Part shown: positions 7,721 to 34,442 of the stretch, one piece after another
How the letters are laid out: each line of letters begins with the position of its first letter
Numbering within the stretch: the first letter of the stretch is position 1
Origin: a virus
Lineage: Duplodnaviria; Heunggongvirae; Uroviricota; Caudoviricetes
IMG/VR virus record: IMGVR_UViG_2778261565_000018
Span: 1-36,928 of that record
DNA: 36,928 bases
Direction: 5' to 3' (one strand)
Position numbers and translations under genes: made by a program
The notes under the pieces: generated by a model
The model's input: only the letters and a program-made list of their open reading frames with translations
Told to the model about the DNA's origin: nothing
Databases searched by the model: none

Positions 7721-8170
7721 TTACTTAACCAATGATGCTGCATATTCGATAAGGTAAAGCTTTGGGGCCAGCCAAATTTTTAACCAAGTCATATTGGTTA
7801 CTACACCAATAATAAAAATCCCCCACAGAGTCAAAACTCCAACCAATGGCATGATAAGAAGATTAATATCACCTTTGCTATCCCAAACCATTGTCGGCCT
7901 GTATTTGGGATTTCCTTTCTCCCATGAATATCCTTCATCACCGATTTTACCTGTCTCAACTCTTTGGCACTGCTTCTTCATAAACCAGAAAACCAGTGGG
8001 ATTGTTAGAATGGCCATTAATGTTTTAATCAGACTGTCAACCATATTCCATAGCAGCAACTGATGAACAACATCAGGAATCTGTGCCTGGCTAAATGAAA
8101 CAGCCGCGTCTATTCCATTACTGGCTTTTTGCAGTAGTTCTACGAGAATCTTGTTTGCTTGTTCTTCCAT
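7721..8170 (-). CDS. Hypothetical membrane protein at the ral/sieB position (possible superinfection exclusion)
   Basis: 149-aa ORF with hydrophobic helices (LMAILTIPLVFWFM, LLIMPLVGVLTLWGIFIIGVV); visibly AT-rich. Confidence 0.55.
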   Translation of the reverse strand: MEEQANKILVELLQKASNGIDAAVSFSQAQIPDVVHQLLLWNMVDSLIKTLMAILTIPLVFWFMKKQCQRVETGKIGDEGYSWEKGNPKYRPTMVWDSKGDINLLIMPLVGVLTLWGIFIIGVVTNMTWLKIWLAPKLYLIEYAASLVK

Positions 8171-8454: not shown

Positions 8455-8727
8455 TCATCTTGCTGTCAGTTGTTTGGATTTCCGGTAGCCTGCCGCGTAA
8501 AGAGCTACGTTCGGAAGACAAGTTGAACCTTCATATTTTCTGGTCAACGTTGTCAGTGTTATTACTTCTGCTCTCATTGCTGGTTTGCGCTTGCATTGCA
8601 AGACCACTCGTGAAGGGGTTGGCCTGTGTAGCTTGTCGGAGCTGATCGCCTCCTGACTTTGCAGATTTGCGCGACGAGCTCTACGGCGAGAAGCTGCGGT
8701 GCCTTTAAATTCTGTTTTTCTGGACAT
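8455..8727 (-). CDS. N: N-like transcription antiterminator (P22 gene 24 type), 90 aa
   Basis: Arginine-rich motif GTAASRRRARRANL; C terminus VALYAAGYRKSKQLTAR resembles P22-type N; GGAGG RBS; sits downstream of nutL. Confidence 0.75.
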   Translation of the reverse strand: MSRKTEFKGTAASRRRARRANLQSQEAISSDKLHRPTPSRVVLQCKRKPAMRAEVITLTTLTRKYEGSTCLPNVALYAAGYRKSKQLTAR

Positions 8728-8752
8728 GGATTCCTCCCGAATAAACTTTGGC

Positions 8753-8800
8753 GATGCAATCTCGAAGCTCCTCCTGAGACGGTTGCTTCGGCATTGCATC
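8753..8800 (-). promoter_or_regulatory. Extended N-leader hairpin (candidate RNase III or translational control element)
   Basis: GATGCAAT..CGAAGC-16 nt loop-GCTTCG..ATTGCATC, about 14 bp of pairing between nutL and the N RBS. Confidence 0.35.
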
Positions 8801-9163: not shown

Positions 9164-9916
9164 TTATGCTGCAAGTCTCTTAATCCAAGTCTCTCTTTTG
9201 GAGAATGGTAGAACTTGGCTTGATTCATGGAAGAGTAAGGAGAGTTGTTGCATTTGATCACCAATTGCTTCGCTGTCTATAACAACAAATCTGTTGTTAT
9301 ACTCCTCACTTGAAGCTTTAAGATCAATTAGTTTCCCAAGCAATGAGTAAGCACTATTCCAGCTTCCTCCGTGTTTCACGCTTGATGTAAAAACGTATTT
9401 AGGTATGTCGGTTTTTATTGTTACAGGGACGGTAATTTGATGTCCACTCAAGCCATATACGTTTTCACGAAGAGAAAGTGCGTCTCTAAGCTCTGTGTGA
9501 TATAGATAATCAATAACCATACTTTCAAACTTTTCAGCTTGAACTGGCTGATACCAGTCTAACGACAAAGTTGATGCGAGTATACCAGCTCTAATTATGT
9601 TCGATGTAATCGCACCGACATCCTTTTCTGTTGCCCAAGCAATGATTTCTCCTCGAGCATTGAGTTCTGCGCCTTCTTTAAGCAGTAATTGTCGTATCTC
9701 ATCAAGTCGTTTTTTGGTAAGCGAGATCCCTCTTGCCTCCATATTCATTAAGGCATCGCATCTGTCACTAACTAAATACCTACCATTGACTTCACGGATA
9801 AAGGCACCGACATGCTCTCCATCATCACAGTAAGTGAATGGACTGATAATTCTCAAGGTCTTGCCTATTGGATGGCATTCGAAACCTAGTTGTGAGATCA
9901 CTGTTGAGCACATCAT
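9164..9916 (-). CDS. Hypothetical protein B (250 aa), distal gene of rex-slot cassette
   Basis: ORF track; ATGATG start overlaps upstream ORF stop (ATGA); no family recognised; AT-rich. Confidence 0.6.
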   Translation of the reverse strand: MMCSTVISQLGFECHPIGKTLRIISPFTYCDDGEHVGAFIREVNGRYLVSDRCDALMNMEARGISLTKKRLDEIRQLLLKEGAELNARGEIIAWATEKDVGAITSNIIRAGILASTLSLDWYQPVQAEKFESMVIDYLYHTELRDALSLRENVYGLSGHQITVPVTIKTDIPKYVFTSSVKHGGSWNSAYSLLGKLIDLKASSEEYNNRFVVIDSEAIGDQMQQLSLLFHESSQVLPFSKRETWIKRLAA

Positions 9917-10470
9917 ATTCCAAACCCCATTTGCCCCGACTCATCTTCAAGCGGTAAAGGTATTCTCCCAGAGTAAGTTATGTTCAGATGTTTACAGAAG
10001 TAATTCCAATACCCTACCAGGTCATCTGGGTTTATGTCATCTTCGATTGGAAACGCTATTCTATCACTATAGTATCCAGCTTCTTCATAGTATACATGGT
10101 AGTGAGCACCGTAAATGATATCTTGGTACTTCGGATGATCGACCTTGTAACTATTCGTGTGTTTGTCAAAGTGATAGGTATCTACCGCGAAAACCCTCTT
10201 GTTATGATAGAAAGCAATAATATTTATTTTAGGGTAAGAAATCGGGTCATCAGGTTCTGAATCCTGATCTGGTTTCCATTTCAGTTCAAACTTTAGCCCT
10301 TGTATAGGTATACAATCCTCATCCAAGGGGATGATATGAGCTTGTAGCCACATATCAGAGCGACTTGGTTTCTGTTTCCATTTAACGCCAGAAAAGTTAA
10401 CTATTTTTTTACAATAAAGTACTTTATCAACTTCTACTTGGCTTGGCTGATAATCATCTATTTTTGCCAA
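9913..10470 (-). CDS. Hypothetical protein A (up to 185 aa), proximal gene of rex-slot cassette
   Basis: ORF track; co-directional with cI, 39 nt downstream; only a TTG start at 10470 or an internal ATG near 10353; no family recognised. Confidence 0.5.
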   Translation of the reverse strand: MAKIDDYQPSQVEVDKVLYCKKIVNFSGVKWKQKPSRSDMWLQAHIIPLDEDCIPIQGLKFELKWKPDQDSEPDDPISYPKINIIAFYHNKRVFAVDTYHFDKHTNSYKVDHPKYQDIIYGAHYHVYYEEAGYYSDRIAFPIEDDINPDDLVGYWNYFCKHLNITYSGRIPLPLEDESGQMGFGI

Positions 10471-10509: not shown

Positions 10510-11169
10510 TCACCCAAACGTCTCTTCAGGCCATTGGCTGGCGATAACTTTCCCCACAACGGAACAACTCTCATTGCATGGGATCATTGGGTATTGTGGG
10601 TTTAGTGGCTGTAGAAACACCTGACCGCTATCCCTGATCAGTTTCTTGAAGGTAAATTCATCACCACCAAGTCTGGCTATGCAGAAATCGCCGGGCTCAA
10701 CAGCTTGCTCAGGGTCAACCAGAATTAACATCCCGTCAGGAAAGCTGGGTTTGGAACCTGTTGGTGCGGTCATTGAGTTACCTTCAACCTCAAGCCAGAA
10801 TGCAGAGTCACTGGCTTTTTTGGTTGTGCTTACCAATCTCTCCGCATCGCCTTTGGTAAAGGTTCTGAGTTCTGGAGAGAACATCCCAGCCTGAACATGA
10901 GAAAAAACAGGGTACTCATATTGTTTTTTAACTGGGGCCGATGAGTATTCGCCAACAGGTGAAAATGTCCCGTCGTGGTTGAATGATATGTTATCAATAC
11001 CAAGGTATTTAAACACCACACCAATATCACTAAGAGATGGATGACGAGATCCGCGCAACCAGTGTCCAATCCCACCCTGCGTCATACCTAGCTCTTCGGC
11101 TAACTTCTCTTGAGTTATGCCGAGCTCTTTCATTCTGGATCTAGCCAGTTCATACCATTTCATTTTCAT
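10510..11169 (-). CDS. cI: CI-type repressor: XRE-family HTH N-domain plus lambda-cI-identical C-terminal S24 domain
   Basis: C-terminal about 135 aa ([21 protein letters not shown]...QWPEETFG) match lambda cI; N-terminal HTH differs; start taken at MKMKWYEL, alternatives upstream. Confidence 0.9.
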
Positions 11170-11278
11170 GTCCTTATTATTACGCTTTGTACTGGAACCA
11201 TCCATGCACAATGTGTATTTTTACTTGTATTCGTAAAGTACATATTGTATTTTTATTCGTGTTTACTATGGAGGGCAT
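11170..11278 (+). promoter_or_regulatory. OR operator region with divergent pR/pRM
   Basis: Between divergent cI and cro; TTGTAT-17 bp-TATTTT candidate pR; motifs GTAAAGTACATAT and ACGCTTTGTA shared with OL. Confidence 0.5.
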
Positions 11279-11635: not shown

Positions 11636-11932
11636 ATGGAAAGAACAAGTTACAGCAAACTATCACAGCGTGACGTTGATCGCGCAGAAACAGATTTACT
11701 TATCAATCTGTCAGCTATTACCCAGCGCGGTCTGGCAAAGATGATTGGCTGTCATGAATCGAAGATAAGCAGAACGGACTGGAGATTTATTGCTTCGGTC
11801 TTGTGTGCTTTCGGAATGGCATCAGACATAAGTCCGATTAGCAGGGCTTTTAAGTATGCGCTTGATGGATTCACCAATAAAAAACGCCCGGCGGCAACCG
11901 AGCGTTCTGAACAAATCCAGATGGAATTCTGA
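11636..11932 (+). CDS. cII: CII transcriptional activator (hybrid: lambda-identical C terminus)
   Basis: C-terminal NKKRPAATERSEQIQMEF matches lambda CII; N-terminal part differs. Confidence 0.85.
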   Translation: MERTSYSKLSQRDVDRAETDLLINLSAITQRGLAKMIGCHESKISRTDWRFIASVLCAFGMASDISPISRAFKYALDGFTNKKRPAATERSEQIQMEF

Positions 11933-11964
11933 GGTCATTACTGGATCAATCCACAGGAGTCATT

Positions 11965-12864
11965 ATGACAAATACAGCAAAAATACTCAACTTCTGCAGA
12001 GGTAACTTTGCCAAACAGGAGCGTAATGTGGCAGATCTCGATGATGGTTACGCCAGACTATCAAATATGCTGCTTGAGGCTTATTCGGGCGCAGATCTGA
12101 CCAAGCGACAGTTTAAAGTGCTGCTTGCCATTCTGCGTAAAACCTATGGGTGGAATAAACCAATGGACAGAATCACCGATTCTCAACTTAGCGAGATTAC
12201 AAAGTTACCTGTCAAACGGTGCAATGAAGCCAAGTTAGAACTCGTCAGAATGAATATTATCAAGCAGCAAGGCGGCATGTTTGGACCAAATAAAAACATC
12301 TCAGAATGGTGTATCCCTCAAAACGAGGGACAATCCCCTAAAACGAGGGATAAAACATCCCTCAAATTGGGGGATTGCTATCCCTCAAAACAGGGGGACA
12401 CAAAAGACACTATTACAAAAGAAAAAAGAAAAGATTATTCGTCAGAGAATTCTGGCGAATCCTCTGACCAGCCAGAAAACGATCTTTCTGTGGTTAAACC
12501 GGATGCTGCAATTCAGAGCGGCAGCAAGTGGGGGACAGCAGAAGACCTGACCGCCGCAGAGTGGATGTTTGACATGGTGAAGACTATCGCACCATCAGCC
12601 AGAAAACCGAATTTTGCTGGGTGGGCTAACGATATCCGCCTGATGCGTGAACGTGACGGACGTAACCACCGCGACATGTGCGTGCTGTTCCGCTGGGCAT
12701 GCCAGGACAACTTCTGGTCCGGTAACGTGCTGAGCCCGGCCAAACTCCGCGATAAGTGGACCCAACTCGAAATCAACCGTAACAAGCAACAGGCTGGCGT
12801 GACAGCCGGAAAACCAAAACTCGACCTGACAAACACTGACTGGATTTACGGGGTGGATCTATGA
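11965..12864 (+). CDS. O: Replication initiator O, 299 aa
   Basis: Protein recognised as lambda O; contains ori iterons. Confidence 0.95.
   Translation: MTNTAKILNFCRGNFAKQERNVADLDDGYARLSNMLLEAYSGADLTKRQFKVLLAILRKTYGWNKPMDRITDSQLSEITKLPVKRCNEAKLELVRMNIIKQQGGMFGPNKNISEWCIPQNEGQSPKTRDKTSLKLGDCYPSKQGDTKDTITKEKRKDYSSENSGESSDQPENDLSVVKPDAAIQSGSKWGTAEDLTAAEWMFDMVKTIAPSARKPNFAGWANDIRLMRERDGRNHRDMCVLFRWACQDNFWSGNVLSPAKLRDKWTQLEINRNKQQAGVTAGKPKLDLTNTDWIYGVDL
12312..12440 (+). repeat. ori-lambda: four about 19-bp iterons (ATCCCTCAAAACGAGGG-like) plus AT-rich region
   Basis: Four tandem iteron copies at about 12312-12399 followed by A-rich tract, inside O. Confidence 0.9.
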
Positions 12865-13562
12865 AAAACATCGCCGCACAGATGGTTAACTTTGACCGTG
12901 AGCAGATGCGTCGGATCGCCAACAACATGCCGGAACAGTACGACGAAAAGCCACAGGTACAGCAGGTAGCGCAGATCATCAACGGTGTGTTCAGCCAGTT
13001 ACTGGCAACTTTCCCGGCGAGTCTGGCTAACCGTGACCAGAACGAACTGAACGAAATCCGTCGCCAGTGGGTTCTGGCTTTTCGGGAAAACGGGATCACC
13101 ACGATGGAACAGGTTAACGCAGGAATGCGCGTAGCCCGTCGGCAGAATCGACCATTTCTGCCATCACCCGGGCAGTTTGTTGCATGGTGCCGGGAAGAAG
13201 CATCCGTTATCGCCGGACTGCCAAACGTCAGCGAGCTGGTTGATATGGTTTACGAGTATTGCCGGAAGCGAGGCCTGTATCCGGATGCGGAGTCTTATCC
13301 GTGGAAATCAAACGCGCACTACTGGCTGGTTACCAACCTGTATCAGAACATGCGGGCCAATGCGCTTACTGATGCGGAATTACGCCGTAAGGCCGCAGAT
13401 GAGCTTGTCCATATGACTGCGAGAATTAACCGTGGTGAGGCGATCCCTGAACCAGTAAAACAACTTCCTGTCATGGGCGGTAGACCTCTAAATCGTGCAC
13501 AGGCTCTGGCGAAGATCGCAGAAATCAAAGCTAAGTTCGGACTAAAAGGAGCAAGTGTATGA
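12861..13562 (+). CDS. P: Replication protein P (DnaB loader), 233 aa
   Basis: Protein recognised as lambda P. Confidence 0.95.
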   Translation: MKNIAAQMVNFDREQMRRIANNMPEQYDEKPQVQQVAQIINGVFSQLLATFPASLANRDQNELNEIRRQWVLAFRENGITTMEQVNAGMRVARRQNRPFLPSPGQFVAWCREEASVIAGLPNVSELVDMVYEYCRKRGLYPDAESYPWKSNAHYWLVTNLYQNMRANALTDAELRRKAADELVHMTARINRGEAIPEPVKQLPVMGGRPLNRAQALAKIAEIKAKFGLKGASV

Positions 13563-13849
13563 CGGGCAAAGAGGCAATTATTCATTACCTGGGGACGCAT
13601 AATAGCTTCTGTGCGCCGGACGTTGCCGCGCTAACAGGCGCAACAGTAACCAGCATAAATCAGGCCGCGGCTAAAATGGCACGGGCAGGTCTTCTGGTTA
13701 TCGAAGGTAAGGTCTGGCGAACGGTGTATTACCGGTTTGCTACTAGGGAAGAACGGGAAGGAAAGATGAGCACGAACCTGATTTTTAAGGAGTGTCGCCA
13801 GAGTGCCGCGATGAAACGGGTATTGGCGGTATATGGAGTTAAAAGATGA
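13559..13849 (+). CDS. ren: Ren, 96 aa
   Basis: Protein recognised as lambda Ren. Confidence 0.9.
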   Translation: MTGKEAIIHYLGTHNSFCAPDVAALTGATVTSINQAAAKMARAGLLVIEGKVWRTVYYRFATREEREGKMSTNLIFKECRQSAAMKRVLAVYGVKR

Positions 13850-13874
13850 CCATCTACATTACTGAGCTAATAAC

Positions 13875-13906
13875 AGGCCTGCTGGTAATCGCAGGCCTTT
13901 TTATTT
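13875..13906 (+). terminator. Intrinsic terminator (tR2-like) before nin region
   Basis: AGGCCTGC-8 nt loop-GCAGGCCT followed by TTTTTATTT. Confidence 0.75.
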
Positions 13907-13922
13907 GGGGGAGAGGGAAGTC

Positions 13923-14363
13923 ATGAAAAAACTAACCTTTGAAATTCGATCTCCAGCACATCAGCAAAACGCTATTCACGCAGTACAGCAAATCCTTCCA
14001 GACCCAACCAAACCAATCGTAGTAACCATTCAGGAACGCAACCGCAGCTTAGACCAAAACAGGAAGCTATGGGCCTGCTTAGGTGACGTCTCTCGTCAGG
14101 TTGAATGGCATGGTCGCTGGCTGGATGCAGAAAGCTGGAAGTGTGTGTTTACCGCAGCATTAAAGCAGCAGGATGTTGTTCCTAACCTTGCCGGGAATGG
14201 CTTTGTGGTAATAGGCCAGTCAACCAGCAGGATGCGTGTAGGCGAATTTGCGGAGCTATTAGAGCTTATACAGGCATTCGGTACAGAGCGTGGCGTTAAG
14301 TGGTCAGACGAAGCGAGACTGGCTCTGGAGTGGAAAGCGAGATGGGGAGATCGGGCTGCATGA
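13923..14363 (+). CDS. ninB: NinB (Orf family recombination protein), 146 aa
   Basis: MKKLTFEIRSPAHQQNAIHAVQQ matches lambda NinB. Confidence 0.9.
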   Translation: MKKLTFEIRSPAHQQNAIHAVQQILPDPTKPIVVTIQERNRSLDQNRKLWACLGDVSRQVEWHGRWLDAESWKCVFTAALKQQDVVPNLAGNGFVVIGQSTSRMRVGEFAELLELIQAFGTERGVKWSDEARLALEWKARWGDRAA

Positions 14364-14887
14364 CTATCAAATCAAATACGCCAGCACACGACAAGGACTG
14401 CTGGCAAACGCCGCTTTGGCTTTTTGATGCACTGGATATTGAGTTTGGATTCTGGCTGGATTCGGCAGCGAGCGACAAAAATGCTCTGTGTGCTCACTGG
14501 CTAACTGAGGCCGACGACGCGCTCAATTCTGAGTGGGTAAGCCACGGTGCAATCTGGAATAACCCACCGTACAGCAATATCAGGCCGTGGGTGGAAAAAG
14601 CCGCTGAGCAGTGCATACAACAGCGACAGACGGTAGTTATGCTTGTGCCAGAGGATATGTCAGTCGGATGGTTCAGCAAGGCTCTGGAGAGTATTGACGA
14701 AGTTCGCATCATCACTGATGGACGGATTAATTTTATCGAACCATCGACAGGGCTGGAGAAGAAGGGAAACAGCAAAGGTTCCATGCTGCTGATTTGGCGA
14801 CCGTTCATCAATCCTCGACGGATGTTTACTACCGTATCCAAAGCGGCATTGATGGCGATCGGGCAGGGCGTCAGGAGGGCAGCATGA
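14360..14887 (+). CDS. Phage-type DNA N6-adenine methyltransferase (Dam-like, orphan), 175 aa
   Basis: NPPY catalytic motif ([10 protein letters not shown]); occupies the lambda ninC/ninD slot; ATGA coupling with ninB. Confidence 0.8.
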
Positions 14888-15066
14888 GACGACAGCGACG
14901 AAGTATCACCGACATCATCTGCGAAAACTGCAAATACCTTCCAACGAAGCGCTCCAGAAATAAACGCAAGCCAATCCCAAAAGAATCTGACGTAAAAACC
15001 TTCAACTACACGGCTCACCTGTGGGATATCCGGTGGCTTAGAGAACGTGCGAGGAAAACAAGGTGA
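14884..15066 (+). CDS. ninE: NinE, 60 aa
   Basis: [30 protein letters not shown] matches lambda NinE. Confidence 0.85.
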
Positions 15067-15311
15067 TTGACCAAAATCGAAGTTACGAACAAGGAAGTGT
15101 CGAGCGAGCTTTAACGTGCGCTAACTGCGGTCAGAAGCTGCATGTGCTGGAAGTTCACGTGTGTGAGCACTGCTGCGCAGAACTGATGAGCGATCCGAAT
15201 AGCTCGATGCACGAGGAAGAAGACGATGTAAAAACGATGAATGTCGGGAATGGTTTCACCCTGCATTCGCCAATCAGTGGTGGTGCTCTCCAGAGTGTGG
15301 AACCAAGATAG
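15063..15311 (+). CDS. ninF: NinF variant (82 aa) with altered C terminus reading out of frame into the ninG region
   Basis: GTG start; first about 55 aa match lambda NinF, then continues across sequence that encodes Rap in another frame. Confidence 0.6.
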
Positions 15312-15814
15312 CACTCGAACGACGAAGCAAAGAACGCGAAAAAGCGGAAAAGGCAGCAGAGAAGAAACGACGACGAGAGGAGCAGAAACAGAAAGATAAA
15401 CTTAAGATTCGAAAACTCGCCTTAAAGCCCCGCAGTTACTGGATTAAACAAGCCCAACAAGCCGTAAACGCCTTCATCAGAGAAAGAGACCGCGACTTAC
15501 CATGTATCTCGTGCGGAACGCTCACGTCTGCTCAGTGGGATGCCGGGCATTACCGGACAACTGCTGCGGCGCCTCAACTCCGATTTGATGAACGCAATAT
15601 TCACAAGCAATGCGTGGTGTGCAACCAGCACAAAAGCGGAAATCTCGTTCCGTATCGCGTCGAACTGATTAACCGCATCGGGCAGGAAGCAGTAGACGAA
15701 ATCGAATCAAACCATAACTGCCATCGCTGGACTGTCGAAGAGTGCAGGGCCATCAAGGCGGAGTATCAACAGAAACTTAAAAAACTGCGAAACAGCAGAA
15801 GTGAGGCTGCATGA
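15203..15814 (+). pseudogene. ninG: ninG/rap homologous frame lacking a start codon (probable 5'-truncated pseudogene or unconventional expression)
   Basis: Frame encodes [28 protein letters not shown]...NSRSEAA (Rap-like) but opens directly after a TAG with no ATG/GTG/TTG until codon for V at 15614. Confidence 0.6.
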
Positions 15815-16482
15815 ATATCTACGAAAGAATTGATGGCAGCAAATACCGAAATATTTGGGTAGTTGGCGATCTGCACGGATGCTACACGAACCTGATGAAC
15901 AAACTGGATACGATTGGATTCGACAACAAAAAAGACCTGCTTATCTCGGTGGGCGATTTGGTTGATCGTGGTGCAGAGAACGTTGAATGCCTGGAATTAA
16001 TCACATTCCCCTGGTTCAGAGCTGTACGTGGAAACCATGAGCAAATGATGATTGATGGCTTATCAGAGCGTGGAAACGTTAATCACTGGCTGCTTAATGG
16101 CGGTGGCTGGTTCTTTAATCTCGATTACGACAAAGAAATTCTGGCTAAAGCTCTTGCCCATAAAGCAGAAGAACTTCCGTTAATCATCGAACTGGTGAGC
16201 AAAGGTAAAAAATATGTCATCTGCCACGCCGATTATCCTTGTGACGAATACGAATTTGGAAAGCCAGTTGATCATCAGCAGGTAATCTGGAACCGCGAAC
16301 GAATCAGCAACTCACAAGACGGGATCGTTAAAGAAATTAAAGGCGCGGACACGTTTATCTTTGGTCATACGCCAGCAGTGAAGCCACTCAAATTTGCCAA
16401 CCAGATGTATATCGATACTGGGGCAGTGTTCTGCGGAAATCTCACATTGATTCAGGTACAGGGAGAAGGCGCGTGGGCATAA
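15811..16482 (+). CDS. ninI: NinI Ser/Thr protein phosphatase (lambda PPase), 223 aa
   Basis: GDLHG and GNHE metallophosphatase motifs; recognised as lambda phosphatase. Confidence 0.9.
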
Positions 16483-16961
16483 GAGAACTAAACCTCACCA
16501 AAGAACAGCATGAGTGGCTGAATGGCTGGCTTGAACTGTGGGGCGCATGGGTTTATTCAGGTCGTCTGGAAAAGCGCATGAGCAGCGTAATAGCGACGTT
16601 CATGGAGAGCGTAGAGCCGGGAAGAGTTATGACAAGGCCAATGTGTAATGATGATGATGGAATGTTGATTTCTCAGGTCGTCGATTCCGTCATGTACATT
16701 GACAAGAAAGCCTTTGGAATCCTCCTCAGCTACTACGCTCATGGCTCTTCCAAGCACGCCATTGCATCTTACTATCATCGCGTCGCAAGACCTCGCAAGA
16801 TGTTATGCCGTGGCGGCGGGCGCATTCAAAAACCATCGCTCGCAACCTGTCGACGGGAAGTTGACGAAATCCTTAATGCCTCGTTGTTTATGATTTACCC
16901 GGTTCTGGATAGTGCGTTTAAAAATCGGAAACGTGTAGAGAAAATTAAACATGTAGCATAG
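16473..16961 (+). CDS. Q: Late-gene antiterminator Q (non-lambda type), about 162 aa
   Basis: Position between nin genes and lysis cassette; not lambda Q; GTG start overlapping ninI stop, start uncertain. Confidence 0.6.
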
Positions 16962-17052: not shown

Positions 17053-17127
17053 GGGTCAGTCGTATAAAGGTCATTACGGAAGGCTGTTAACCTTCTTATC
17101 GTGGTTCGAGTCCACGCTGTCCCGCCA
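17053..17127 (+). tRNA. tRNA-like gene, anticodon GUU (Asn) by manual fold; one U-U mismatch in acceptor stem
   Basis: Hand-folded cloverleaf: 5-bp anticodon stem GAAGG/CCTTC, loop CTGTTAA, T-arm CGTGG-TTCGAGT-CCACG, 3' GCCA. Confidence 0.5.
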
Positions 17128-17132
17128 AATAT

Positions 17133-17208
17133 GCTGGTTTAGCTCCAATGGTAGAGCAGTCGCCTTGTAAGCGAATGGGTAGCGGTTCAAGTCCGTTAAC
17201 CAGCACCA
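17133..17208 (+). tRNA. tRNA, anticodon UGU (Thr) by manual fold, encoded CCA
   Basis: Perfect 7-bp acceptor stem GCTGGTT/AACCAGC, D-arm GCTC/GAGC, anticodon loop CTTGTAA, T-loop TTCAAGT, ACCA end. Confidence 0.65.
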
Positions 17209-31975: not shown

Positions 31976-31984
31976 TGGATTATG

Positions 31985-32006
31985 CCCACCATCAGGTGGG
32001 TTTTTT
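31985..32006 (+). terminator. Intrinsic terminator after L
   Basis: CCCACC-atca-GGTGGG followed by T6. Confidence 0.6.
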
Positions 32007-32366
32007 GTTGTCATCACCAAGATATTTCTGCTTATATTCCTCTGAAAGAGGAATTGATCTTTCAACCATGCTAATAAGTTTATCTACTTGTTTTTTCTGT
32101 TTTTCTATGATTTCTAAAAGTTGAGGTATAAGTTTTTCATGCTCGCTTTTATCATATTTTCTGTTTATCGCATCTAGTTGTTCTTTAAACTGCTGAACGA
32201 TAGGACCATCCTCCGGCCCAAAATCACGACAAACACGAATCGCCAACTCAAGCAGAGTGACAATCTCAGCATTCATAGAACGATTATTTTGTTTTGATGA
32301 CGCTTCAATTATTTTTTTTAATTCAACAGGAAGCCTAATCCGAAGTTGAGGGTCTTCTCTACTCAT
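31992..32366 (-). CDS. Mnt-like ribbon-helix-helix repressor with C-terminal extension, 124 aa
   Basis: N terminus MSREDPQLRIRLPVELKKIIEASSKQNNRSMNAEIVTLL resembles P22 Mnt RHH; divergent from the arc/ant operon. Confidence 0.65.
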   Translation of the reverse strand: MSREDPQLRIRLPVELKKIIEASSKQNNRSMNAEIVTLLELAIRVCRDFGPEDGPIVQQFKEQLDAINRKYDKSEHEKLIPQLLEIIEKQKKQVDKLISMVERSIPLSEEYKQKYLGDDNKKPT

Positions 32367-32409
32367 ACCATTAGTCCAAACAGGAAAAATTCACAATAAG
32401 TAAATTATG

Positions 32410-32472
32410 CCCCACGGTGGGGTTGACTTCAATGACGCACGGTGTGACAATTTTGATTGCCCCACAGTGAGG
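32410..32472 (+). promoter_or_regulatory. Divergent promoter/operator region: palindrome CCCCACGGTGGGG (32410-32422), TTGACT -35 (32423-32428), second half-palindrome GCCCCACAGTGAGG (32459-32472)
   Basis: Perfect 13-bp palindrome next to a -35 hexamer; related copy 50 bp downstream near the arc-like gene RBS. Confidence 0.55.
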
Positions 32473-32489
32473 CTATTTAAGGAGTGGAG

Positions 32490-32657
32490 ATGGAAAAAGC
32501 AAAAGACATGTATCAACGCAAGGTTCGTTTCCCAGAGGATGTAAGGAAGGCGATTGAAAGAAATGGAGAAAAAGAGTGTCGACAGTTCAACACGGAACTT
32601 ATTTATCAATTGAGAAAAGTGTACGGACTGATTGGAGAGAAGAATGCTAGGACATAA
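32490..32657 (+). CDS. Arc-like ribbon-helix-helix repressor, 55 aa
   Basis: Hand-translated MEKAKDMYQRKVRFPEDVRKAIERNGEKECRQFNTELIYQLRKVYG resembles P22 Arc; AAGGAG RBS 5 nt before ATG. Confidence 0.65.
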   Translation: MEKAKDMYQRKVRFPEDVRKAIERNGEKECRQFNTELIYQLRKVYGLIGEKNART

Positions 32658-32726
32658 AAATAGCGAAGCCCGACAGTGCGCGAACACAAATCGGGCTTCT
32701 ATGTCAGTAACTTCCAAGGAACTAAC
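32655..32726 (-). ncRNA. Predicted Sar-like antisense RNA covering the ant RBS
   Basis: Minus-strand promoter TTGATA-17 bp-TATACT (plus-strand 32733-32761) with -10 overlapping the ant start; minus-strand terminator is the perfect 9-bp hairpin at 32665-32699 plus T-rich tail. Confidence 0.5.
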
Positions 32727-32729
32727 GAA

Positions 32730-33650
32730 ATGAGTATAGCAACAGCGGTATCTACTATCAACGTGCCATTCCACGGCGCAGAGCTTTATGTCGTCAATCA
32801 CAACGGCGAACCGTACACCCCAATGAAACCTATCGTTGAGGGAATGGGTATGGATTGGGCTTCACAGTTTACAAAGTTAAAACAAAGATTTGCTAAAGGT
32901 ATTGTGGAAATCGCAATACCTTCAGTTGGCGGTATGCAGACCATGATTTGCCTTGCTTTGCGTAAACTGAATGGTTGGCTCCAAACCATCAGTCCTAACA
33001 AAGTCCGCCCTGAAATCCGCGAGAAGGTAATCCAGTATCAGGAAGAGTGTGACGATGTGCTCTACGAGTACTGGACTAAAGGCCATGTGATTAACCCGCG
33101 CAAAGCTAAAAAGGCGTTGCCGGGTAAAATCACCACTGAACAGCAGGAAGCCATTAAACAACTCGTCATGAGTCGCGGTCAGTCTCTGCCAAAAGAAAAA
33201 CAGGCTAAGGCGATGATCACCATGTGGTCGTCACTGAAATCCCATTTTGGATGTTCGTACAAAGAAATTAGTGAGGAGCAGTTTACCGAAGCACTGTCAC
33301 TTGCTGCTCGCGTTCCGCTTGAAGGTGAGTTCATTGGCAAACAAGAGAAGAAAACCAACGAGCTTTCCGCAAAAGAAGCAAACAGCCTTGTATGGCTGTG
33401 GGATTATGCTAACCGCTCACAGGCATTATTCCGCGAATTGTATCCAGCGCTAAAGCAAATTCAATCGAACTATTCCGGCAGATGTTACGACTACGGCCAT
33501 GAGTTCTCGTATGTTATTGGAATGGCGAGAGACGTTTTAATCAATCACACACGAGATGTTGATATTAATGAGCCAGATGGACCAACGAATCTTTCCGCAT
33601 GGGTAAGGCTTAAGAGCAAAGAGTTGCCGCCTTCACTGCATCACTACTAA
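32730..33650 (+). CDS. ant: Antirepressor Ant (P22 Ant-like N-terminal domain), 306 aa
   Basis: N-terminal region (LYVVNHNGEPYTPMKPIVEGMGMDW) resembles P22-type antirepressor; AAGGA RBS; downstream of arc-like gene. Confidence 0.7.
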   Translation: MSIATAVSTINVPFHGAELYVVNHNGEPYTPMKPIVEGMGMDWASQFTKLKQRFAKGIVEIAIPSVGGMQTMICLALRKLNGWLQTISPNKVRPEIREKVIQYQEECDDVLYEYWTKGHVINPRKAKKALPGKITTEQQEAIKQLVMSRGQSLPKEKQAKAMITMWSSLKSHFGCSYKEISEEQFTEALSLAARVPLEGEFIGKQEKKTNELSAKEANSLVWLWDYANRSQALFRELYPALKQIQSNYSGRCYDYGHEFSYVIGMARDVLINHTRDVDINEPDGPTNLSAWVRLKSKELPPSLHHY

Positions 33651-33668
33651 CAGATTACCAACGAAATG

Positions 33669-33692
33669 ACCCAGCCTCGGCTGGGTTTTTTA
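33669..33692 (+). terminator. Intrinsic terminator after ant
   Basis: ACCCAGC-ctcg-GCTGGGT followed by T5. Confidence 0.6.
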
Positions 33693-33704
33693 TCAGGAGT
33701 TCTC

Positions 33705-34442
33705 ATGCTCTATAGCAATATATTGGCACACGCCCGGCGGTGTGCGCCTGCGGAGTCGTGCGGCTTCGTGGTGAGAACGCCGGAGGGGGAGCGGTATATC
33801 CCTTGTGTGAATATCTCTGCAGAGCCGGAGGCGTATTTTCGTATTGCACCGGAAGACTGGCTGCGGGCAGAGATGCAGGGGGAGATTGTGGCGCTGGTCC
33901 ACAGCCACCCCGGTGGTCTGCCCTGGCTGAGTGAGGCTGACAGGCGGCTGCAGGTGCAGAGCGATTTGCCTTGGTGGCTGGTCTGCCGGGGTGAGATTCA
34001 TAAATTCCGCTGTGTGCCGCATCTTACCGGGCGGCGCTTTGAGCACGGGGTGACGGACTGTTACACGCTGTTCCGGGATGCTTATCATCTGGCGGGGATT
34101 GAGATGCCGGATTTTCATCGCGGGGATGACTGGTGGCGTCACGGTCAGAATCTCTATCTGGATAATCTGGAGGCCACAGGGCTGTATCAGGTGCCGTTGT
34201 CAGCGGCGCAGCCGGGCGATGTGCTGCTGTGCTGTTTTGGTTCATCGGTGCCGAATCATGCCGCCATTTACTGTGGTGATGGCGAGCTGCTGCACCATAT
34301 TCCTGAACAACTGAGCAAACGAGAGAGGTATACCGACAAATGGCAGCGACGCACACACTCCCTCTGGCGTCACCGGGCATGGCACGCATCTGCCTTTACG
34401 GGGATTTGCAACGATTTGGCCGCCGCATCGACCTTCGTGTGA
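33705..34442 (+). CDS. K: Tail assembly protein K (MPN/JAB plus NlpC/P60-like)
   Basis: Recognised lambda K motifs (HARRCAP..ESCGF, HSHPGG, DCYTLFRDAY); start after AGGAG; the track start at 33666 lies inside the terminator. Confidence 0.85.
   Translation: MLYSNILAHARRCAPAESCGFVVRTPEGERYIPCVNISAEPEAYFRIAPEDWLRAEMQGEIVALVHSHPGGLPWLSEADRRLQVQSDLPWWLVCRGEIHKFRCVPHLTGRRFEHGVTDCYTLFRDAYHLAGIEMPDFHRGDDWWRHGQNLYLDNLEATGLYQVPLSAAQPGDVLLCCFGSSVPNHAAIYCGDGELLHHIPEQLSKRERYTDKWQRRTHSLWRHRAWHASAFTGICNDLAAASTFV

Follow-up and report, generated by a model that had tools for sequence, protein, structure and literature searches.

A probable orphan GATC-type Dam methyltransferase gene in the ninC/ninD position of a lambda-like prophage

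Between ninB and ninE, where phage lambda carries ninC and ninD, the prophage studied here has a single short reading frame, which raises the question of what its product is, whether it has a restriction partner, and what it would do in a host, E. coli, that has its own Dam. The benefit of a phage dam in a Dam+ E. coli is not obvious. The window, by which we mean the whole stretch of DNA that was analysed (36,928 nucleotides), begins with host flank carrying ybhC (1-1330), and homology to lambda starts from the attachment site, window 1331 being equivalent to lambda 27724, so that we regard the element as a prophage integrated at att-lambda. The left arm resembles that of lambda apart from several swapped cassettes, and the right arm matches phage PhiR49_2 in the terminase, portal, capsid and tail genes. 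A search for this exact mosaic in complete E. coli genomes or phage records returned none, the best coverage being 62-65%, in the left part.

The reading frame and the ninC/ninD slot

The preliminary description had reported a 175-aa ORF with an NPPY motif in the slot where lambda has ninC and ninD. Frame and motif are both present at the locus, where the features are as follows.

13923-14363, + strand: ninB (orf), recombination mediator gene; Pfam NinB E=2e-54, phrog_72, 99% DNA identity to lambda
14360-14887, + strand: dam ORF, 528 nt, that is 175 codons plus TGA
14561-14572, + strand: catalytic motif NPPY (motif IV), dam residues 68-71 in the translation
14364-14890, + strand: mosaic replacement segment (blastn), in place of lambda 41085-42096 (ninC and ninD)
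14884-15066, + strand: ninE; Pfam NinE E=3.2e-43

In blastn comparisons, window 11871-14363 corresponds to lambda 38592-41084 at 99% identity, with homology ending exactly at the ninB stop codon, and it resumes 7 nt inside ninE, where window 14891-15814 corresponds to lambda 42097-43043. The lambda annotation places NinC at 41081-41953 and NinD at 41950-42123, in the same interval of the PR operon between ninB and ninE, and the proposed placement of dam in this slot therefore proves exact, with junctions at 14363/41084 and 14891/42097. NinC, which is PAPS-reductase-like, and NinD are unrelated to dam in sequence and in predicted activity, which points to a cassette swap and not to divergence. 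The gene is a stand-alone modification gene and belongs to the cassettes that replace one another in the nin region, exchanged here at gene boundaries for ninC and ninD together.

At both of its ends dam overlaps its neighbour. The ninB TGA (14361-14363) and the dam ATG (14360-14362) share an ATGA at 14360-14363, and the dam TGA (14885-14887) and the ninE ATG (14884-14886) share a second one at 14884-14887, while a GGAG at 14346-14349 lies 10 nt 5' of the dam ATG. It had been claimed that dam is coupled to ninB: the overlap behind this claim is there, and its layout is as expected for translational coupling, although the coupling itself we infer. Such ATGA overlaps are typical of tightly packed lambdoid nin regions (phage L paper, PMC8022706). 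A GATC at 14349-14352 overlaps the GGAG that precedes the dam start codon.

The maximal dam frame in the ORF listing opens at an in-frame GTG at 14300 and would give 195 aa. This start was rejected, since the homologues seen are annotated with 175 aa and the extra codons lie inside ninB. ATG 14360 is the annotated start in every dam homologue inspected (175 aa), and it is further supported by the PF05869 and TIGR01712 models, which start at dam residues 2-4. An antisense 174-aa ORF (14494-15018) has no family match and was taken as a chance ORF. For dam itself a chance origin can be dismissed on the strength of its Pfam match (E=1.6e-64) and of its comparison with the VT2-Sakai gene, in which synonymous changes make up five of the seven nucleotide differences.

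Family, probable target and orphan status

The product matches the Pfam family PF05869 (Dam) with 217.1 bits (cut-off 28.1, E=1.6e-64, profile positions 1-167 of 169) and the NCBIfam equivalog TIGR01712 (phage N-6-adenine-methyltransferase) with 265.5 bits (cut-off 97.05, profile positions 1-165 of 165). It also matches phrog_111 'DNA methyltransferase', its best PADLOC matches are orphan methyltransferase (oMTase) models, and no Pfam family besides PF05869 was matched at E<=0.01. The reading as an N6-adenine methyltransferase is borne out by the first two of these scores, and the domain search that had been suggested as a check assigned a methyltransferase family with no competing Pfam family.

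At 173 of 175 positions (99%) the protein is identical to VT2-Sakai orf32 (NP_050531), which has the REBASE name M.EcoVT2Dam. Both substitutions (I112V and N151S) are conservative, at positions outside the invariant columns of 45 homologues. NPPY is invariant across these homologues and occurs in HP1 Dam and T1 Dam as well, and all 46 invariant family residues are present, in columns that were defined on an alignment including the dam product. M.EcoVT2Dam further has the same length (175 aa), the same ninB-dam-ninE position and the same overlapping stop and start codons, and apart from the two substitutions the difference lies in the carrier, here a non-Stx prophage at att-lambda. In PMC6602927, which cites Radlinska & Bujnicki 2001, the target of M.EcoVT2Dam is given as 5'-GATC-3'. 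Stx phages including Phi24B and Min27 carry identical copies of this enzyme, and copies at 98-99% are listed for HK97 and others. In the Phi24B study the gene goes by the name dam, the identical protein is listed for VT2-Sakai and Min27, and HK97, 933V and others appear with copies at 98-99% identity (PMC3342100). We consider it very probable that 14360-14887 is an orphan Dam gene of the GATC type found in lambdoid phages. The N6-adenine methylation activity and the GATC specificity of its product are both carried over, by sequence likeness, from M.EcoVT2Dam, for which GATC specificity is known here through a secondary citation.

HP1 Dam and T1 Dam, at 35% and 32% identity respectively, are more distant relatives in PF05869; they share with the dam product its orphan status and the motifs DxWxTP, LDxxA, W-x-NPPYS and GRxxFI. 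T1 Dam differs in an N-terminal extension of about 45 aa, an internal insertion and a virulent carrier, and HP1 Dam in being carried by a P2-like phage. Both are reportedly GATC-specific, in studies attributed to Auer & Schweiger (in 1984) and to Piekarowicz & Bujnicki (in 1999). The Dam enzymes of E. coli and T4 and DpnM, of class alpha, are another matter: their structure-based identity to the dam product is 8-13%, a likeness at the level of the fold only, and they have a dedicated DNA-recognition domain, whereas the 175-aa protein is without one. The latter has no Pfam match besides PF05869 and lies outside the E. coli/T4 Dam family, although it would probably have the target and the mode of action of E. 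coli Dam. Lactococcal M.Phi93DAM, in which NPPY is the sole recognisable motif, methylates GATC and gives protection from DpnII (PMC4190342); we liken it to the dam product by description, and common family membership is not assumed.

A PDB search, run both with the one sequence and with a profile of 45 sequences, gave chance matches only and no solved homologue, and the fold comparison was therefore made on a predicted model. The model, in which the fold is confident, is a bare class-I SAM-dependent methyltransferase core whose nearest folds are those of N6-adenine methyltransferases, and it has no separate DNA-recognition domain. The segment from the LDSAAS strand (31-34) to the NPPY strand (64-67) has no modelled secondary structure and low confidence; it may, speculatively, have a role in cofactor or DNA binding. 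Enzymes of this class transfer a methyl group from SAM to the N6 of a flipped-out adenine that is held by NPPY. The dam product would accordingly be a minimal 175-aa SAM-dependent enzyme, little more than a catalytic Rossmann-type core with the NPPY adenine-binding motif, that methylates the N6 of adenine in GATC. As a predicted near-minimal DNA methyltransferase without a recognition domain, it may appeal to enzymologists.

The neighbours of dam are Ren, NinB, NinE, NinF, a start-less NinG, NinI and Q, and no cognate endonuclease lies beside it. We scanned the ORFs of the non-lambda segments, which comprise an N-like protein, a DUF1828/DUF6978 pair, a cI-type repressor, Cro, CII, a Q-family antiterminator, an HNH protein, an Ant-like antirepressor and an Arc-like protein. 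Among these scanned ORFs no restriction-enzyme family was found, bar weak matches confined to an HNH motif, and two of them, at 7721-8170 (-) and 32391-32801 (-), gave no family match. The HNH gene is the following.

18741-19091: HNH endonuclease, 116 aa; weak PADLOC REase_II and mREase_IV matches, E about 1e-5, to the HNH motif only

It lies just 5' of the small terminase gene (19240-19722) and about 3.9 kb from dam, in what we take to be the usual position of an HK97-type packaging HNH gene. The HNH protein is not the restriction partner of dam. The earlier statement that no endonuclease partner is visible thus holds, given the NinB and NinE flanks, the lack of a restriction-enzyme family in the scanned ORFs and the PADLOC oMTase assignment.

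Other readings of the gene and its activity have to be set against this one. It is extremely improbable that dam forms a restriction-modification pair with an endonuclease overlooked within the window: the HNH ORF with its weak REase_II/mREase_IV matches and several small ORFs without family would be candidates, but dam is flanked by NinB and NinE through overlapping stop and start codons, the HNH gene lies about 3.9 kb away, just 5' of the small terminase gene, with matches confined to the HNH motif, and ninB-dam-ninE occurs in many otherwise different phages with no adjacent annotated endonuclease in the records inspected. That the product is an adenine methyltransferase of other or relaxed specificity, like Hia5, M.EcoGII or PhiOS31_p25 of a Serratia prophage, is a very unlikely reading. 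Phage-borne adenine methyltransferases of this kind do exist (PMC3299994, PMC5778455, PMC7556043), the dam product has no recognisable target-recognition domain, and small changes alter specificity in some methyltransferases (PMC6602927). However, its 99% identity is to an enzyme reported, by secondary citation, to be GATC-specific, the two differences being conservative and at variable positions. M.EcoGII is moreover a class beta enzyme (PMC7544214), and with PF05869 as the only Pfam family matched, the dam product falls outside the M.EcoGII/Hia5 family; a kinship with these non-specific enzymes, which we had considered, was dropped for the same reasons. There is also the highly improbable case of an inactive relic or a non-catalytic product. 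Redundancy with host Dam could relax selection, and other nin genes of this prophage are damaged (the ninG start is lost and ninH is absent), but the dam frame is full-length, its invariant residues are complete (46 of 46, in columns defined with the dam product in the alignment), the differences from the VT2 gene are mostly synonymous (5/7) and the predicted fold is confident. A solitary, GATC-specific and intact Dam is the reading that we retain.

Expression and possible role

Upstream of ninB the window has a feature that bears on when dam would be read.

13875-13908, + strand: tR2-like intrinsic terminator in the ren/ninB interval; 8-bp GC-rich stem AGGCCTGC...GCAGGCCT, then TTTTATTT

It lies inside the DNA that is 99% identical to lambda 38592-41084, and from established lambda biology we take it to be lambda tR2. 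Its location 5' of ninB places ninB-dam-ninE in the part of the PR operon that depends on N antitermination, and by the lambda paradigm dam would be read only after N has acted. In Phi24B, whose dam product is 100% identical to NP_050531, induction brought a significant change in the qPCR profile of dam, and profiles tied to the lytic cycle were seen for four of the five CMAT genes tested (PMC3342100). This behaviour on induction agrees with the position of dam behind tR2. By analogy with lambda and with Phi24B, dam is probably a delayed-early lytic gene, whose product would most likely be made after N antitermination, at induction or infection, and not in a quiet lysogen.

Host Dam is reported to leave the virion DNA of lambda and P22 under-methylated, possibly since replication outruns modification (PMC8022706). 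The probable job of the dam product would be to keep fast-replicating phage DNA fully Gm6ATC-methylated when host Dam lags, and methylation-sensitive, GATC-cutting restriction systems of the next host, and possibly the nicking enzyme MutH, would then spare progeny DNA. We infer that completing GATC methylation on replicating phage DNA is the best-supported role, a conclusion much less certain than the identity of the gene. In the window, GATC is mildly under-represented, with 119 sites observed against 159.8 +/- 11.6 expected from dinucleotide-preserving shuffles, of which 100 out of 100 had at least 119. A phage that methylates all of its GATC sites would not need such a deficit, and the deficit neither supports nor refutes the methylation-completion role.

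An epigenetic or regulatory role of the same activity, in which the enzyme supplements host Dam in the lysogen and stabilises lysogeny or tunes phage or host promoters, seems unlikely to us. Host Dam was reported to be necessary for stable 933W lysogeny, the Phi24B authors proposed that phage Dam might supplement host Dam in lysogens, and Phi24B Dam protein was detected in lysogen cultures by CMAT (PMC3342100). However, dam lies behind the tR2-like terminator in the PR operon, which by the lambda paradigm is repressed in the lysogen, and the response of Phi24B dam to induction and the lytic pattern of four out of five CMAT genes also speak against it; in view of these induction and lytic-cycle qPCR profiles, the CMAT detection in lysogen cultures can be attributed to spontaneous induction. 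Rather unlikely, too, is a counter-defence or anti-repair gene, for which rapid methylation of new phage DNA would blunt MutH nicking, SeqA sequestration or an unrecognised defence, the targets being systems that act on un- or hemi-methylated GATC rather than classical restriction. No features pointing specifically to such a role of dam were found in the window. Whatever the merits of these two readings, completion of GATC methylation in the lytic cycle is the role we favour. In practical terms, prophage-borne copies of Dam can confound the interpretation of methylomes, and they may rescue GATC methylation in dam mutants during induction.

Distribution of the gene and other cassettes of the prophage

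The gene was found at the DNA level in 1566 of 5426 complete E. coli genomes (about 29%), with up to five copies per genome, and in the listed E. coli records it bears the RefSeq name 'phage N-6-adenine-methyltransferase' and adjoins NinB and mostly NinE. The ninB-dam-ninE-ninF block matches 422 phage records, again at the DNA level, among them 434, SfI, Sf101, HK544, HK140, mEp043, IME10 and many Stx phages, and in the phage records inspected dam is flanked by ninB and ninE. At the protein level, relatives occur in 2131 phage records, and in a large protein database homologues at 61-98% identity bear the names of many Enterobacterales genera. A dam gene in the ninC/ninD position is therefore not unusual, being among the commonest nin-region alternatives. 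The phage Dam enzyme of VT2 is said to have been described by Radlinska & Bujnicki in 2001, and 'phage N-6-adenine-methyltransferase' is the name already given by automated annotation. Gene, family, nin position and, by citation, GATC specificity are all on record already, so that the interpretation offered in the preliminary description is supported but the gene is a well-known and ordinary one.

In Klebsiella phages Seifer and Soft and Hafnia phage Enc34, tblastn matched CDSs whose label is 'phosphoadenosine phosphosulfate reductase', which suggested a NinC-like/Dam fusion. The Seifer CDS (NC_048732, 2456-3166) has 236 aa, and the Dam-like match takes up about 200 of these residues at 28.8% identity; we therefore discarded the fusion in favour of a matter of labelling. 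The Seifer label is probably an annotation error, and those of Soft and Enc34 are similar.

Elsewhere in the nin region, a 23-bp deletion relative to lambda within window 15195-15814 has removed the ninF stop and the ninG start codons. By reading on in another frame, the ninF ORF reaches 82 aa. The frame of ninG is unbroken (Pfam NinG 296 bits, 15203-15811), its first start being a GTG at 15614, and the sequence makes it probable that ninG (rap) is inactive. The prophage has no ninH, window 15814 being equivalent to lambda 43043 and 15820 to lambda 43233, and the ninI phosphatase gene (15811-16482) follows directly on the end of ninG. In place of lambda Q there is a 162-aa protein of the Phage_antitermQ family (16473-16961), and 3' of its gene come a tRNA-Asn (17053-17127), a tRNA-Thr (17133-17208) and then lambda-like S/R lysis genes.

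Two further cassettes lie outside the nin region. At 9164-10470 (-), in the position of lambda rexA/rexB and between the cI-type repressor gene (10510-11211) and the N-like gene (8455-8799), are ORFs of 250 aa (DUF1828) and 185 aa (weak DUF6978) that match PDC-M24B (E=6e-10) and PDC-M24A (E=5e-4), a candidate defence pair in PADLOC. The two ORFs may form a candidate defence cassette, their position being the classic slot of exclusion genes. In the right arm, a 1.75-kb insertion relative to PhiR49_2 (window 31977-33723) separates tail-tip gene L from tail-tip gene K. Encoded on it are a P22 Ant-like antirepressor (32676-33650, +) and an Arc-like repressor (31992-32366, -), together with the ORF without family at 32391-32801 (-), and it looks like an immI-like module within the tail operon.
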